DNA from: a virus | Virus record (IMG/VR): IMGVR_UViG_3300019776_000550 | Location: 1 to 64,000 of that record | Reading direction: 5' to 3' (one strand) | DNA: 64,000 bases | Shown: in pieces, positions 44,969 through 50,888 of the stretch | Position numbering within the stretch: position 1 is the stretch's first letter | Layout: every line of letters begins with the position of its first letter | Position numbers and translations under genes: made by a program | The notes under the pieces: model-generated | Databases searched by the model: none | The model's input: the letters and a program-made list of their open reading frames with translations, nothing else | Told to the model about the DNA's origin: nothing

Positions 44969-45052
44969 TATTAAAATTATTATTGGTTACTGATTAATTA
45001 ACTGCTGTAATTTAACAATAAAAAGGGAGTTTTTCAACTCCCTTTGATTTAA

Positions 45053-45886
45053 TTATGCGTTGATTTCTGTTAACATACCAAGATTACGAACTGCATATTG
45101 GTTTTGTAACCACTCTTGAAATTCAGCATTAAACAATGCACCTTGTTTTACTGCAACAGGAACACTATCAGCAGGGATAACATCATCATGCTTAAATTCA
45201 GCATTATTTTTCAATTCATTTGCTCTAAAACCTGCTAAAGACGCTTGTATGTCAGTAGTAGGTCTTACTACTAATGTAGTAAATTGAAAAATGAGTTTAT
45301 TATTTAATAACAAAACATCACCTCCTTTACCACTACGCTTGGGTTCAAGTGTAATCAAACCTGTTGTGGTAAGCTGTGGCATTTGAAGAGTTGTTGTGTT
45401 ATTACGAACAATATACGTAACAAAATTCTTCTTTACTAAACTTTCACTAAAGTTAAATCCATCTTTAATACCATTAGCTTCACAAAAAGCCAATGTTGTA
45501 GTTTGCCAAAAATACTTTTGGCGACTTGAATTTGACACTCTACCCATTAGGAAATAACCTAACAGACTAGAACTGTCTTCAATTTCATCACTTGATTCAA
45601 CATTTTGAGTAAACTCAAGTTGAAACGTAAGTGCATTAATACATGTAATACGTTTTTCTTCTTTTGAAGAATTTACAAATGCAGCATTAGGTTCTGCATT
45701 AAATATTTGTTTATATACAAAACCAAGTTCTTCATGGCTTTTATCAATAAACAAAGCATTTTTACTGGCTTTGATTTCTTCATAAGAAGTCATTCCAGTA
45801 GCTGCAATAGTAGGTTTTGTTATTTTAACTTTGTTAACAATAACTGGATTTGTGATTTCGAACGGATTTGAAATTTCAGTTGACAT
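45053..45886 (-). CDS. Hypothetical early protein
   Basis: 277-aa ORF followed by a terminator hairpin at ~45020-45046. Confidence 0.6.
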   Translation of the reverse strand: MSTEISNPFEITNPVIVNKVKITKPTIAATGMTSYEEIKASKNALFIDKSHEELGFVYKQIFNAEPNAAFVNSSKEEKRITCINALTFQLEFTQNVESSDEIEDSSSLLGYFLMGRVSNSSRQKYFWQTTTLAFCEANGIKDGFNFSESLVKKNFVTYIVRNNTTTLQMPQLTTTGLITLEPKRSGKGGDVLLLNNKLIFQFTTLVVRPTTDIQASLAGFRANELKNNAEFKHDDVIPADSVPVAVKQGALFNAEFQEWLQNQYAVRNLGMLTEINA

Positions 45887-45939
45887 AGTTTGATTTATTT
45901 AAGTTGGTTTGAAAAAAAAAAAAAAAAAAATATAAGATG

Positions 45940-47266
45940 TTAATATACTACATTGTTCAATCTCAATGATTTAAGATTTTGTTTCTTAATCCATTGTGAA
46001 TTATTGAGAACAGATAAAATCTGTTTACGTGCGTCATAATATGACTTAGCATGTACAGATATGACAAATTCATATCTAGTATTTCCAAACTGTTTATCTT
46101 TACTTTCTGTTTCTCTACCTGTATAACTACAAGTATTTACTTTAGAAATTGAAATTTGTTTACCAAATAAATCTACAATACCCGTGTATATCATAATTTA
46201 AAATAATTGTTTTCAATTTCTTTTTCATATTCAACATGTTCAATAGCTTGTTCTATGTTATGAGGACATGTACTTTGTACTCTTTGATTGTTTCTCACAA
46301 TCATTTTAAGAGTATTACGTAGATGATTGATGTCCATAGCATCAATATCTACATATTTTCCATCTTTAGTTCTCCAATATACTTTTTCCATTGTCATAAA
46401 TTTTTTAAAAAGGAAGTGATTTTTCACTTCCTTTTGTTTGATTTACATCAACCACTTATTTGCATTTTGTTGATGGTATTCAACCATCAAGTTAGCTTTT
46501 TGTGGATTCAAATAAATCCACATTTGCTTCGCCGTTTTGTACTCATCGTACACTTTCTTTGCATTTATGCAAGTAAATTCGTACATGTCAATAACATGTA
46601 CAACTTGCTCTACGTTTTCTCCTCCTGCTGCTTTAGGAAGAGTGAAGTAGAATACCATTTCTCCTATACAAGCGGCAATTTGAAAATTGCCCTTGCAGAA
46701 AATCTTTCCTGTTGGAAATACAGCGGTGAAATTTAATTCACCATTTCCAAACGTCTTTGTGATTTTAATTCCGTTAATGTTATTCATGTTCTTCTATGTT
46801 TAGTGATGTTAAAAATGAAACCATACCCACGATACATAAGTTGTATGTGGCAAAAAATAATTTAACATAAGAGACATGAATGTCTATTACATTAAAAAAT
46901 AAATATTCTGCTAATATCAATAACACATATATAAAAAGTGTCATTAATATTATAAAAATTAATCTTGTTATTTTCATTTTTTTTTTGTGATTAAAATAAA
47001 ATATTCCTATTCAGTAAAACTAAATAGGAATATAATCATTTGTCCATCATTTATCTGAAATATACGAAAATGTCGTCGTATATTTCAGATACAACCACTA
47101 CTGCTCCAATAAGAGCAAACATTAGACCGCCACCTATTAAATAGGCGACTGACATTATTACTTCATGGTAATTAATGTCAAATATAAGACTGATAAAGGC
47201 TGCAGGAATTACGAATAGAATAGACCATACAGCTACAAATCCAATAAGACAAATTAATGCTTTCAT
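45940..47266 (-). CDS. Cluster of small early ORFs (45940-46194, 46191-46427, 46443-46787, 46780-46977, 47051-47266)
   Basis: Small co-oriented ORFs; the last two are hydrophobic two-TM proteins. Confidence 0.55.
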
Positions 47267-47298
47267 TTTATTTTTTTTTTTTTTAAGGTTTATGTTCT

Positions 47299-47369
47299 TT
47301 TTTCTTCACTCTGCTTTTTACAAGGACTTGTGACCTTCTATATTAAATATAGGTAGCATTAAAGAAAAA
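47299..47369 (-). ncRNA. Twister ribozyme (type P1, with P3)
   Basis: Minus strand: UUUUUCUU UAA UGCU AC CUAUA-UUUAA-UAUAG AAGG UCACAAGU CCUU GUAAAA AGCA GAGUG AAGAAAAA. P1, P2, P3 and P4 pair; both pseudoknots (CAC/GUG and AC/GU) pair. Confidence 0.9.
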
Positions 47370-47406
47370 GCATCTATTCTCCCAACAGATGCTTTGAATA
47401 GTTGTG

Positions 47407-47547
47407 CTACACTTTTACACAACTAAGAATCAAGGAACTTTCATCCTTAATAATAGAAATAGCTTCCATAACAGAAGAAGCTTCAATTTCCATATTAAGA
47501 ACAATAATTCCTGTTCTCAGACGGTAACTTACTAAATACTTGTTCAT
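47407..47547 (-). CDS. Small early ORF (46 aa, not in track)
   Basis: MNKYLVSYRLRTG...LSCVKV*. Confidence 0.55.
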   Translation of the reverse strand: MNKYLVSYRLRTGIIVLNMEIEASSVMEAISIIKDESSLILSCVKV

Positions 47548-47580
47548 AGTATTAGGTTTAAATGTAAGAAAATAGAATTA

Positions 47581-47751
47581 CTATTGAATTTTAATAATTC
47601 CGTCATAATCTACGGAATATATCAAAAATCTTTTATCTCTTATCTCTCTCCAGATAGAAGCATTTTTCAGAGTTTTTAATCTTTCTAACGCATCTTCTAA
47701 TGATTCAAACCATATATATTCATAGTCTGAATTAAATATAAAGTATTCCAT
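47581..47751 (-). CDS. Small early ORF (56 aa, not in track)
   Basis: MEYFIFNSDYEYIWFESLEDALERL...IIKIQ*. Confidence 0.55.
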   Translation of the reverse strand: MEYFIFNSDYEYIWFESLEDALERLKTLKNASIWREIRDKRFLIYSVDYDGIIKIQ

Positions 47752-47824
47752 AATAAACAATTAAAAATGAATAAAACAGAATTGTGACAGTTTCTAAGAT
47801 AACTGACAAAACTTATTGTTTGCA

Positions 47825-48240
47825 TTACAATATTGTAACACCTGTTAAAACTCTTGAAGTTGTATTATTTACAACTTCATAAAATTCCCAAACCATGTCT
47901 CCATTGTTATAATTAAACATAGAGACATAAATAGAATTAGAATCATAACATTCTAATTCTATAAATTCTTTCCATGCTTTTTCCAAACCATTTTCATGGT
48001 TTGTATGAGTTGGGAAAAATTCAATAAATTTCAATTCTTTCAACATAAATCTTCTATTTTTAAATCTAAAACTGGAAGTTCTTTTACTATTTTGTAATAA
48101 TAACTTTCTGAGTCATCAGTAGGTTGATTATTAACAAAATTCTGAACTTTTTCTAAGTCTTTTTCTTGTATCTTACCTAGTAAGATATTTTCATCACAGT
48201 GTCCTTTACCGTGATAATAATATTTGAATAAATACATCAT
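47825..48240 (-). CDS. Two small early ORFs (47825-48046, 48040-48240)
   Basis: ORF track; poly-A run immediately before the 48240 start. Confidence 0.55.
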
Positions 48241-48544
48241 TTTTTTTTTTTTGATTTAATTACACAGCTTAAAATAAAATAATTACAATTGTATGATTTA
48301 ATGCAAGTAGTTTGATTAACTTCTCGGAACTAACTTTCATAAGAATTTCTTCTTATAACCAGTACATCCTTTGCACATACAATTGTAATTAATTGTTTTT
48401 AAATGTTCGGTTGTGTCTGTTTTGTATATCACAACTTTATCTTACACATCTATTGAGAAACCTCCAATGTCTCAAATGTTTTTCAATGTGTAAACCAGAT
48501 GCTTTACTTCAAACATTTCAAAGCTTCAATGGAGTTTGTAAGCT

Positions 48545-48670
48545 TTGAATAACAATGACCTTTTAACTTACATGATTTTCTCATGTAAAACTTTTATAAA
48601 AGTAGTTTCAAGATTTATTTAGACACGTTTATCTCATCATCAGATTGTTTTCGTGTATATTTTAATTCAA
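48545..48670 (-). ncRNA. Hammerhead ribozyme, type I
   Basis: Minus strand: AACAAU CUGAUGA U GAGAU-loop-AUCUU GAAA C...GUC AUUGUU. Stem I AACAAU/AUUGUU extends via UUGAAU/AUUCAA. Stem-I bulge ACACG is complementary to loop-II CGUGU. Confidence 0.85.
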
Positions 48671-49030
48671 AACTTAATAATAAAACAACAACTCTAGGTG
48701 TACATATCATAGGTAGTGAGCCTATGTACATATTTTTCACAGTTGAGCGTTGTTGCTTTATTATCTACTTCTAATAACATCAGTTGTCTTTTGTTATTAG
48801 ATTCACCTTCTGTTCACTCTAAGCAAGTACGTGTTATTGTATTAACACAATGCGATATGAGCATAAACAGTTTTCATCTCCTTATTTAAGGGAAACTAGG
48901 TTAGTCAAAAAAAAAAGAAGTAGTTTATTCTTTCAGATGTCTTTTAAAAAGACGGAAAGATGGACACAGCTGACATTGTAAGCAGTCCTACTTCTTTTAC
49001 GTAATCCTACCATCATGTCACTAGGTAGGT

Positions 49031-49095
49031 TTCCCACTCAACCTTCTATCATTATGATAGCTAACCCTTGTGAAGTTAGAATGAGGTTTTAAGAA
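49031..49095 (-). ncRNA. Putative variant twister ribozyme (type P1, with P5)
   Basis: Minus strand: UUCU UAA AACC UC AUU CUAAC UUCACAAGG GUUAG CUAUCA-UAA-UGAUAG AA GGUU GAGUG GGAA. L4 has one extra U and P1 is short. Confidence 0.6.
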
Positions 49096-49149
49096 TCGTT
49101 AGTTTTATTCTGTTGCCAAGAAAAACTAACAAAAAACTCCGAATCTTAT

Positions 49150-49500
49150 TCAGTCGCAGAGTTCAGACCTAACACAACCTGAATGTGCAAATGGAAATCC
49201 ATCATACATTCCACCTCCGCAATGACTACAAGTAGTCTCTGCAAAAGTGTCATGGATTTTTTCCATTGCTTCATTGGTTGCTGGTTCAGACATCAACTCT
49301 AGCAATACTTTCCTTAAATCATAAGGATTATGGACTTTGTAAGTATTATGCTCACAATCCATAGCGTATGCAGAGTCAATATTCTCATGCGTTATGTTTA
49401 TACACTTATTATTGTAATAAGCTGATAAGCAATAAACATGAGGTAGTCTGTGACCATTAAAGTCTAAACCAAACTGCTCTACAAGGACTAATTCTGTCAT
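49150..49500 (-). CDS. Small early protein with C-terminal CxxC
   Basis: Likely start MTELVL at 49500; CSHC...H..C motif. Confidence 0.5.
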   Translation of the reverse strand: MTELVLVEQFGLDFNGHRLPHVYCLSAYYNNKCINITHENIDSAYAMDCEHNTYKVHNPYDLRKVLLELMSEPATNEAMEKIHDTFAETTCSHCGGGMYDGFPFAHSGCVRSELCD

Positions 49501-49642
49501 TGTTTTACAATTTAATTTAAAAAGTTTTTCTACTAACATAACTTCTAGTAGATAAAGTGATACTAATTACCTGTTGATTCTCAAGATGTATCAAGTCTTG
49601 ATTCCTTATACTCAGTTAGCAGGTTCTGAGTTTAGGATTGAG

Positions 49643-50008
49643 TTACAGAGTAACCACTTTCTCTCTCAAATTACGAGAGACATGGTTTCTCAATGTCTGC
49701 AAATCTGCCTGTTCTTTACAGACAAACTCTCCATTTGCTTCTCTAACAAGAGTAGCAATAATAGGAAAGTTCCCTGTAAGTCCATGCAGTGCTACTAATA
49801 CCATAGTAGCTAATGCAGACATTCCTGGAACTGCTACCGTAACAACAGTATTACTTTCAACCCCTAAAGATTGAAGATACTTTGTTACAGCTTCCAAATT
49901 TTCCCCAAATGGTTTTTCAGGGTTAATTTGAACAGTTCCATGAAACTCAAATCCTAATTCATCAAGACTCTTGTTAAAGTGTCCTGACAAGTTAAGTTTC
50001 TTGTTCAT
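49643..50008 (-). CDS. Csx15-like (type III CRISPR accessory, CARF-related) protein
   Basis: LNLSGH...PGMSALATMVLVALHGLTGNFPII...F...DLQTLR...R resembles my recollection of the Csx15 consensus (NFSH..PGL..A..LAELHGR.G.FP...NLQ..R). Likely ATG at 50008. Confidence 0.65.
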   Translation of the reverse strand: MNKKLNLSGHFNKSLDELGFEFHGTVQINPEKPFGENLEAVTKYLQSLGVESNTVVTVAVPGMSALATMVLVALHGLTGNFPIIATLVREANGEFVCKEQADLQTLRNHVSRNLREKVVTL

Positions 50009-50196
50009 TTTTAAGGAACGTAGGAAACTAATGTGTTCTATTCTAAGTAAGAACACTTAACTTGCAACCACTAAAGTAGGTTACTTTCACTTTGTAGCAT
50101 ATTTAAAAATCTGGAGGTAATGCTACTTAACCTCACTGTTAGCTTTTTATATAAAAAAGCTAAAAAAACAAAAACAAAAAGAAAAAAAAGCTAGGA

Positions 50197-50427
50197 TTAA
50201 CCTAGCTTGAATTTCTGGATGATAGCGTCTAACACGCTATCAGCAACACCGTAACCATTTGCGTATTCAATAACACTGACTTCTGCATCAGTGAATTTCT
50301 CCGCGATACATATTAACGTTTGCGAAGCTTTTGACAGCTTCTCGTAAATTTCGTCGGTGACTTCCACACCTTTTCTGCCCGATACCTTTCTATCGGTATC
50401 TTTAACATCTAACTTTATCTGAGCCAT
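50197..50427 (-). CDS. First gene of the leftward (early) unit, hypothetical
   Basis: 76-aa ORF with an overlapping terminator-like hairpin at its 3' end. Confidence 0.6.
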   Translation of the reverse strand: MAQIKLDVKDTDRKVSGRKGVEVTDEIYEKLSKASQTLICIAEKFTDAEVSVIEYANGYGVADSVLDAIIQKFKLG

Positions 50428-50439
50428 TTTCTTTTTTGT

Positions 50440-50880
50440 TTAAAGTTTATTGGGGGTACAACCCCTCGCAATTTCAGTAGGGGGTGGCTAAGGTAAGTAG
50501 TTCCTCAATCAGCAAATTTCCACAACTTCTATTAAAATTATGATGTCTTCATTCAGCAAATCTTTTTGTAGCACTATAATCAGCTAGGGGGGTCTTTTAG
50601 TATATTAATCCAAAGTACCTTCTTTTGTAGTAGGGATATTAGGTATATCATGTTCAGCAAGTGTATTTTTAATGTCAATTCTATTGTTCTAATGGGGGTT
50701 ATTCAGTAGGTTTTTGCTGTTTTTGGCTGTTTTCATTTTAAAATAGTTTTTTTAAGTATATGGAAAACGGTCATTTTAAGCTACTTTTAGAGTTAACTGC
50801 CTGATTATCAATCAGTTTACTATGTCAAAATTATAATTTTACTATGTCAATATTTTGACAGTTTTTTCGCTATATTTGTA
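50440..50880. promoter_or_regulatory. Divergence region: candidate origin/promoter zone
   Basis: Non-coding between divergent blocks. Six WTCAGYW repeats, G-runs, TTTACTATGTCAA direct repeat, Bacteroidota-type -7 box TATATTTG at 50871. Confidence 0.55.
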
Positions 50881-50888
50881 CAAATCAT

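Follow-up and report, generated by a model that had tools for sequence, protein, structure and literature searches.

A gene-free stretch bracketed by two predicted variant self-cleaving ribozymes in the early block of a crAss-like phage

Why does a phage carry 534 nucleotides (nt) without a gene between two predicted ribozyme cut sites, in the midst of its small early genes? The question is raised by the minus strand of positions 48557-49090 of IMG/VR record IMGVR_UViG_3300019776_000550, of which the first 64 kb were analysed (the window). A twister ribozyme (twister 2) lies at the 5′ end of this stretch and a hammerhead ribozyme at its 3′ end, and between them is a central module of about 350 nt, here called the core. 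The case for both ribozymes is solid; a role for the core as a functional RNA is no more than plausible.

The bracketed stretch and its ribozymes

The source record is a complete 91.5-kb virus genome with direct terminal repeats and a G+C content of about 28%. Its major capsid protein matches the Crassvirus capsid family PF23898 (E 6e-51), and the source is an uncultured freshwater crAss-like phage (Crassvirales). Genes are directed rightward up to 23.3 kb, leftward from 50.4 down to 23.5 kb, and rightward again from 50.9 kb. The bracketed stretch is found near the start of the leftward early block, amid small open reading frames (ORFs) that have no family match, and it is contained in a 909-nt gap (48241-49149) flanked by ORFs of 129 and 66 amino acids (aa). 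Three co-oriented minus-strand ribozymes (49095-49031, 48656-48551 and 47365-47303), with small co-oriented ORFs around them, occur within about 1.8 kb. The features on which the argument turns are as follows.

49031-49095, minus strand: twister 2, a variant type-P1 twister with predicted cut U49091^A49090, identified by its layout and by covariation in four copies
48551-48656, minus strand: variant type I hammerhead with predicted cut C48557^A48556, identified by a descriptor and a six-member family
48557-49090, minus strand: predicted excised product of 534 nt (twister fold, central module and hammerhead fold), deduced from the two cut sites
48678-49030, minus strand: central module without an ORF, about 350 nt, fold z -5.4, recurring as a unit in other runs
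47303-47365, minus strand: twister 1, a canonical twister-P1 with predicted cut U47361^A47360, Rfam family RF03160

The elements of twister 2 follow one another in the order P1, UAA, P2, P4, the P5 hairpin, AA, P2′, the 3′ internal loop GAGUG and P1′. The helices are P1 UUCU/GGAA, P2 AACC/GGUU, P4 CUAAC/GUUAG, which closes the loop UUCACAAGG, and P5 CUAUCA/UGAUAG, and the pseudoknots are UC:GG (T1) and CAC:GUG (T2). Copies were taken from a pattern scan of IMG/VR, and the alignment consists of the window sequence and those of the phages L031, L034 and L035. In these four copies 96.9% of cells are paired, and eight pairs, in P1, P4 and P5, show a double-sided change, which was matched by none of 500 shuffles (slid controls gave 0-1). 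P4 exists in three versions (CUAAC/GUUAG, CUGCU/AGCAG and CUUAC/GUAAG), with three of its five pairs altered on both strands, and P1 is preserved through U-G to U-A and C-G/U-A exchanges. The UAA, P2 and the loop UUCACAAGG are invariant in the four copies, and the UCACAAG part of that loop, like the invariant UAA and GAGUG, is also present in twister 1, which Rfam does detect. T1 and T2 can pair in all four copies, without variation; because these pairs never vary, the pseudoknots are compatible with the alignment but are not proven by it.

The likeness to the type-P1 twister of RF03160 lies in the order P1-UAA-P2-(T1)-P4 with a UCNCAAG loop-AA-P2′-GAGNG-P1′, in the possibility of two pseudoknots, and in a predicted cut at a U-A step. 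Unlike RF03160, twister 2 has AACC/GGUU for P2 and not NGCN, a T1 made of a U-G plus a C-G pair, no P3, a P5, an extra U in L4, and no Rfam score. It is concluded from the covariation that twister 2 is a genuine but unusual twister, for which cleavage is predicted. Copies of it lie directly 5′ of protein genes in L004, L035 and L034. Twister 1 is the only ribozyme nearby that Rfam detects (RF03160, 58.9 bits, E 8e-12, under the gathering score of 67.2). It is located about 35 nt ahead of a 71-aa membrane-protein gene and would provide the next cut downstream of the 534-nt stretch; a motif scan of the 91.5-kb genome found no third twister.

The hammerhead is composed of a 5′ pseudoknot strand ACACG, stem I AACAAU/AUUGUU, a CUGAUGA with one extra U, stem II GAGAU/AUCUU (5 base pairs (bp), opening with G-U) with CGUGU in its loop, GAAA, and a stem III in the form of a three-way junction, with a variable arm of 12-98 nt and a conserved arm (loop UGAGAAAAUC), together with the cut GUC^A. 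A hammerhead descriptor has a single match in the window, at 48649-48551; a shuffled window yields 0.38 matches on average, or 0.02 if the stems must be of these lengths, and the same scan found no second hammerhead in the window. A 17-nt scan of IMG/VR returned 38 loci, of which five, together with the window, make up six intact members with the entire architecture. In every one of the six, CUGAUGA, GAAA and the GUC or GUU are either invariant or within the permitted variation, with H17 being C or U. All six have the extra U after A9; an extra residue in this place occurs in a few viroid hammerheads.

Twelve pairs show compensatory double changes among the six members, distributed over stem II (two), the base of stem III (two), arm IIIb (five, in an approximate register) and the pseudoknot (three). 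Pairs were counted on motif-anchored segments, because MAFFT applied to full hammerheads misplaced the core of the members without insertions. The 5-bp pseudoknot between stem I and loop II is ACACG:CGUGU in four members and AGUGG:CCACU in two, with no unpaired cell. Stem I varies only in its outermost pair, where two members have A-A. The hammerheads of the other phages lie between two ORFs, 13-80 nt past the stop codon (in 3/5) and 24-360 nt before the next start. The covariation argues that 48656-48551 is a genuine but unusual hammerhead, again with cleavage as a prediction.

It resembles the type I hammerheads of Perreault et al. 2011 (PMC3088659) in its CUGAUGA...GAAA...GUH core, its open stem I, and its covarying Watson-Crick pseudoknot, which joins loop II to the 5′ extension of stem I. 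It differs from them in the extra U after A9, the G-U as first pair of stem II, the lack of an Rfam score, the three-way junction in stem III with one arm of 12-98 nt, and the insertion of 74-80 nt in some members. The insertion is a hairpin placed directly after the extra core U-G in L043, L067 and L072, where the stem III arm reaches up to 98 nt; decoration as heavy as this is unusual in hammerheads. With its extra core U, three-way stem III and insertions of 74-98 nt, the family forms a natural data set on what core decoration a hammerhead tolerates. Another copy, at 8500-8940 of L004 (IMGVR_UViG_3300016476_001273), keeps the 5′ two-thirds of the family with a large insert in stem II, lacks a matching 3′ strand of stem I, and may be degenerate. 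Another core, CUGAUGA-U-GCUU...AAGC-GAAAC, follows 350 nt downstream; its stem III and its stem I are both incomplete, and the two hammerhead-like cores in L004 may be decayed or rearranged ribozymes.

An earlier interpretation of this locus, made from the letters alone and here called the sequence-only reading, had proposed a structured RNA bracketed by ribozyme cuts. The bracket is borne out in silico, in that both ribozymes covary in other phages and the predicted cuts fall at exactly 49090 and 48557.

Fold, coding capacity and recurrence of the core

The minimum free energy (MFE) fold of the core, from its 5′ end and all on the minus strand, has the following parts.

49029-49006: D1, hairpin CCUACC/GGUAGG, in the MFE fold
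48998-48913: D2, three-way junction closed by an 11-bp stem (48998-48988/48923-48913), with GGAC/GUCC and UCUUUC/GAAAGA arms, then a run of ten U (U10)
48870-48810: D4, long hairpin, in the MFE fold
48800-48771: D5, hairpin CUAAUAACA/UGUUAUUAG, in the MFE fold
48762-48679: D6, with a long stem 48762-48749/48692-48679, in the MFE fold

All the minus-strand helices that the sequence-only reading had listed are present where it placed them, and all of them are in the MFE fold of 48557-49090. Comparison with dinucleotide shuffles had been set beforehand as a refutation test, and the minus strand folds at -134.6 kcal/mol against -100.6 +/- 5.4 for the shuffles (z -6.28, with 0/100 as good), a result that does not discriminate locally. 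The plus strand of the same stretch has a z of -5.3. Coding controls of equal length from the same early block gave z -8.4 (the region of the 129-aa ORF) and -5.7. In a 200-nt scan the window-wide mean z was -1.05 (sd 1.5), most of 45.0-50.4 kb on the minus strand lay between -3 and -8, and the 534-nt stretch between -2.1 and -5.4. An unusual degree of structure is predicted for the entire early block, coding sequence included, and the 534 nt do not stand out within it. The sequence-only reading had taken the amount of pairing as a distinguishing mark; this argument falls, since neighbouring coding RNA is predicted to fold equally well and paired content therefore does not single out the 534 nt. 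The strong folding of 45000-50400 may be a trait that these early transcripts share, or it may stem from base composition.

That the stretch has no long ORF holds up. Under the standard code the minus strand of 48241-49149 has no frame that stays open beyond 49 codons, the length of its longest, and reassigning any one stop codon does not yield a frame that spans the region. A decayed gene was considered and rejected: when 328 ORFs from eight related loci were compared with 48241-49149 by tblastn, the only matches were spurious frames over the hammerhead and over a 121-nt element described below. An antisense regulator of the phage's own genes was likewise rejected, since the most complementary segments of the 91.5-kb genome extend over 15-23 nt with E values no lower than 0.04, as chance alone would give. 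The 534 nt match no Rfam family, either at the gathering threshold across the whole window or at E up to 10 in searches of 5001, 681, 76 and 118 nt.

The contigs of four public runs (X5, X16, X18 and X19) were compared with 46900-50500; gaps in the cover by X18 and X19 were given no weight. The core recurs at 92-96% identity in contigs of three of them, namely X19, which is a metatranscriptome, and the DNA runs X5 and X16. In all, runs X5-X17, X19 and X20 contain the module, and X20 is a second metatranscriptome. The 461-nt contig of X19 covers only 48668-49032, with 16 mismatches and 12 gap positions, and ends 7 nt beyond 48668. Its 5′ flank is unlike that of the window, and the 30 nt shown 5′ of the core include AUGUAAAACUGU, an exact copy of the 3′ end of the L067-type hammerhead. 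Because of this identity a ribozyme cut may precede the core in X19 too, although this is a mere hint. X16 has contigs that contain twister 2 alone or the 5′ part of the hammerhead alone, with foreign flanks, and a 536-nt contig that spans core and hammerhead. X5 has a 2.6-kb contig, 96% identical, which carries an extra insert of about 1.09 kb between two 3′ halves of twister 2. Twister 2, core and hammerhead are three separable modules.

The X5 contig also allows conservation to be compared. At least 17/468 positions differ in the two adjacent ORFs, against at most 22/819 in the non-coding stretch, and 6 of these at most 22, together with 7 inserted bases, are in a single hairpin apex (48821-48852). 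Outside this apex the divergence of the core is at most 2%, compared to at least 3.6% in the adjacent ORFs. The insertions and deletions are not multiples of three, and a reading frame is therefore excluded there. When the variants are rebuilt, the hairpin 48821-48852 still forms: U-A replaces G48848-C48831, and G-U, which is paired only in the minus-strand RNA, replaces G48846-C48833. On these counts the core appears to be no less conserved in related phages than the genes beside it.

The nearest sequenced relative is L004, in which the 129-aa gene is 88% identical and is followed by a 151-aa ORF in the slot where the window has the core. The core is absent from L004, and twister 2 lies elsewhere in that phage, ahead of a Csx15-like gene. 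BLAST against L004 and three other related phage records, which also lack the core, found only pieces of the hammerhead. Exact-pattern scans for the core were empty or gave random matches in viral and genome contigs, and in metagenomes all 24 of 24 matches were only about 18-20 nt long and due to chance. Among the INPHARED phage records the 534 nt have neither a near nor a distant match. The 129-aa gene led to only one IMG/VR contig, and its protein has five further homologues; a metagenome scan with the alignment of this protein found no relatives, and neither did a search with the 66-aa gene.

What the 534-nt product may be

The reading that we favour, at a probability of about 0.45 and so slightly short of even odds, is that the 534 nt form a stand-alone linear phage non-coding RNA (ncRNA), which cuts itself out of the early transcript and likely binds or titrates a host or phage factor. 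The leftward early block would be transcribed as a long RNA and cut by itself at the three co-oriented ribozymes, and the cuts at 49091/49090, 48557/48556 and 47361/47360 would split it into four products. The first would be the mRNA of the 129-aa gene, ending in a conserved hairpin (49098-49130); the second the linear 534-nt RNA, the only one without a gene, with a 5′-OH and a 2′,3′-cyclic phosphate; the third a 1.2-kb mRNA with the 66- and 73-aa genes; and the fourth an mRNA starting with the fold of twister 1. A type-P1 twister is retained 3′ of its own cut and a type I hammerhead 5′ of its own cut, and for this reason the 534-nt product would have a compact ribozyme fold at each end. These folds should protect it from end-dependent RNases. 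The core would then be a non-coding payload in a slot that holds protein genes behind the same ribozymes in other phages, and the RNA would be made early in infection, most likely to bind or titrate a host or phage factor. Cleavage, accumulation of the RNA and action in trans are what we infer. The functional ncRNA of the sequence-only reading survives in part: the stretch is non-coding, has two credible cut sites and a discrete conserved core, and is represented by a contig in an RNA library; its circular form finds no support.

Several points weigh against this reading. The 11-bp D2 stem and the U10 run (48923-48903) could end transcription inside the 534 nt, and the fold z of the stretch is not better than that of neighbouring coding RNA. 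Neither bracketing ribozyme has an Rfam match at E up to 10, in searches of 5001, 681 and 76 nt for twister families with twister 2 and of 5001, 681 and 118 nt with the hammerhead. The core is dispensable for the phage lineage, because L004 lacks it and has the 151-aa ORF in its slot. No diverged homologues of the core were found in IMG/VR, JGI metagenomes, GTDB genomes or INPHARED, and its fold consequently rests on thermodynamics and one compensatory pair. Finally, the contig in the RNA library of X19 could stem from DNA.

It is possible, if somewhat doubtful, that the core acts in cis as a leader, attenuator or spacer, such that the ribozymes only trim the flanking mRNAs (of the upstream 129-aa gene and the downstream 66- and 73-aa genes) and the middle piece is a degraded by-product. 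In that case the D2 stem and U10 would terminate or pause transcription, giving a species of about 185 nt, and the other hairpins would stabilise or insulate the flanking messages. Both ribozyme families are generally intercistronic in other phages, the A-rich/U-rich 11-bp stem at 48998-48903 is followed by ten U, terminator-like hairpins stand directly 5′ of both twister cuts (47395-47367 and 49130-49098), and the entire early block including its genes is predicted to be highly structured, all of which fits a role in cis. However, some 350 nt is long for a spacer, two ribozymes are redundant for trimming alone, and the core moves as its own unit with differing 5′ neighbours and is seemingly better conserved than the flanking ORFs. 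That conservation also bears on the suggestion that the core is a non-functional mosaic leftover, left as filler by cassette shuffling at ribozyme boundaries, with hairpins that are general sequence properties of the block. We regard this as unlikely. The slot is certainly variable, with the 151-aa ORF in L004, the insert of about 1.09 kb in X5 and a relative in X18 that lacks the next two ORFs; distant homologues were not found in the collections scanned, and the z-score is locally unexceptional. Filler would not be expected to diverge by at most 2% outside one apex when the adjacent ORFs diverge by at least 3.6%, nor to turn up in three or more other studies, including one RNA library, nor to keep its variable hairpin paired through compensatory changes, and it contains no remnant of any relative's gene.

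The remaining alternatives have much less in their favour. The sequence-only reading had offered a circular RNA as one possibility, and a host RtcB-type ligase could in principle join the 5′-OH to the 2′,3′-cyclic phosphate to make an exonuclease-resistant circle. Ribozyme cleavage leaves the end chemistry that RtcB uses, and Bacteroides thetaiotaomicron, which belongs to the likely host phylum, has RtcB. Yet the ends are linked only by a 4-bp ACCU/AGGU pairing, which competes with P2 of the twister, they come from two unrelated ribozymes and not from a split repeat unit, a ligase of the RtcB or Rnl2 type is missing from the phage, and the X19 contig shows no permutation and continues on its 5′ side into sequence unlike that of the window. 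Perreault et al. 2011 searched for circles made from pairs of phage hammerheads and found none (PMC3088659). We drop the circle as very improbable. Very unlikely too is an element that works as DNA (an origin, operator or packaging signals) or a micro-protein, from a 28-aa ATG frame at 48780-48694 or a 34-aa GTG frame at 49037-48933. Such frames are present, the plus strand folds well (z -4.3 to -5.3), and the cumulative GC-skew minimum is near 48-50 kb. Against this, the start codons of the short frames are buried in stems, and the inverted repeats are long-range, with arms 30-85 nt apart. Their pairing includes nine G-U pairs on the minus strand against four on the plus strand; the G-U pairs of the minus strand are mismatches on the plus strand, and the variant G-U 48846/48833 is paired only on the minus strand. 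As for the skew minimum, it falls at the switch of gene strand at 50.4-50.9 kb, which is the site of repeated motifs.

The favoured reading of a linear, ribozyme-delimited ncRNA can be extended, with little probability, to a stable ribozyme-capped early RNA that is directed in trans at the host, perhaps as a decoy that occupies an RNA-binding defence or RNase, and belongs to an uncatalogued class of phage ncRNA. The 534-nt product lies about 0.55 kb downstream of the Csx15-like gene, a candidate anti-CRISPR gene. Should there be such a wider class, with ends made by interchangeable ribozymes, these ribozymes would have a concrete biological job.

Relation to known systems and neighbouring elements

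Multiple ribozymes flanking single genes have been described in prophages, with the cutting of long phage transcripts as proposed role (Perreault et al. 2011, PMC3088659). Different ribozyme classes cluster near phage genes, and for most self-cleaving ribozymes of bacteria and phages a biological role has yet to be established (Weinberg et al. 2019 review, PMC6765202). The present locus is a variation on these ribozyme-punctuated phage transcripts, known since 2011. As in the units of PMC3088659 and PMC6765202, several co-oriented ribozymes are clustered over about 1.8 kb in an operon of small phage genes, twister and hammerhead are used interchangeably, and cutting of long transcripts into unit pieces is proposed. 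The units of PMC3088659 flank one or a few protein genes, whereas the piece bracketed here is gene-free, the carrier is a crAss-like phage, and both bracketing ribozymes escape the Rfam models. What is new is thus the crAss-like carrier, the two ribozyme variants missed by Rfam and the flanked piece without a gene. A full-text literature search found no paper that links crAss-like phages with self-cleaving ribozymes.

Viroid-like and retrozyme circular RNAs (PMC5680766, PMC7761336) are also delimited by self-cleaving ribozymes and have 5′-OH and 2′,3′-cyclic phosphate ends; the 534 nt are unlike them in being single-copy and DNA-encoded, with two unrelated ribozymes and without a repeat unit or designed end pairing. 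With the Rfam families GOLLD and ROOL the stretch shares that it is phage-borne, without an ORF, rich in hairpins and several hundred nt long. Unlike them it matches no Rfam family at E up to 10, is not beside tRNAs in this genome, and has simple hairpins in place of an intricate conserved core. Synthetic designs for circular RNA flanked by twisters, and insulators such as RiboJ, are likewise delimited by ribozymes and keep ribozyme folds at the ends of the product.

The locus indicates that crAss-like phages, a major uncultured phage group, carry ribozyme arrays. Censuses of ribozymes are probably undercounts, because two of the ribozymes here diverge enough to escape Rfam models. If the gene-free piece accumulates, ribozymes would be end-makers for phage ncRNA, beyond separators of mRNAs.

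A further hairpin stands directly upstream of the bracketed stretch.

49098-49130, minus strand: hairpin GUUAGUUUU/AAAACUAAC with a conserved 15-nt loop UCUUGGCAACAGAAU, read from the sequence, ending 2 nt before twister 2

It would be the 3′-terminal structure of the upstream cleavage product. Its loop is also found 3′ of the homologous gene in L004 and L035, where the stems differ by compensatory substitutions at three pairs. A hairpin with this conserved loop (UCUUGGNAACAGAAU) follows small early genes in three phages, including L004 (5425-5458) and L035 (3760-3795 and 4235-4270), and may be a 3′-end stabiliser or a protein-binding site. A 12-bp terminator-like hairpin at 47367-47395 ends 1 nt before twister 1. 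The succession of 3′ hairpin, cut and ribozyme-capped 5′ end at both twisters suggests a repeated design.

The 121-nt element mentioned above, at 48273-48393 on the minus strand and at 6024-6144 of L004, is 99% identical between the two, compared to 83-93% for the flanking genes. It is closed by a stem of about 16 bp, has a fold z of about -4.7 to -5.8, and has the palindrome TACAATTGTA in both arms. In L004 it is located 36 nt ahead of a tRNA with a CAU anticodon, and in a contig of X18 it is joined straight to 47846, two ORFs being skipped. It could be an RNA element or an operator pair.

At 50094-50134 on the minus strand there is a hairpin GAGGU/ACCUC, with a loop GUAGCAU that is complementary to AUGCUAC 20 nt downstream and is therefore a pseudoknot candidate. 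The hairpin occupies the position, ahead of the Csx15-like gene, where L004 and L035 carry twister 2. A pistol ribozyme was considered here and rejected, as the architecture does not agree with PMC4604425 and there is no Rfam match. The intergenic region at the strand switch (50428-50888) contains TTGACATAGTAAA twice, 27 nt apart from start to start, and several copies of a TTGCTGA/CTACTGA motif, which are candidate early promoters or iterons.

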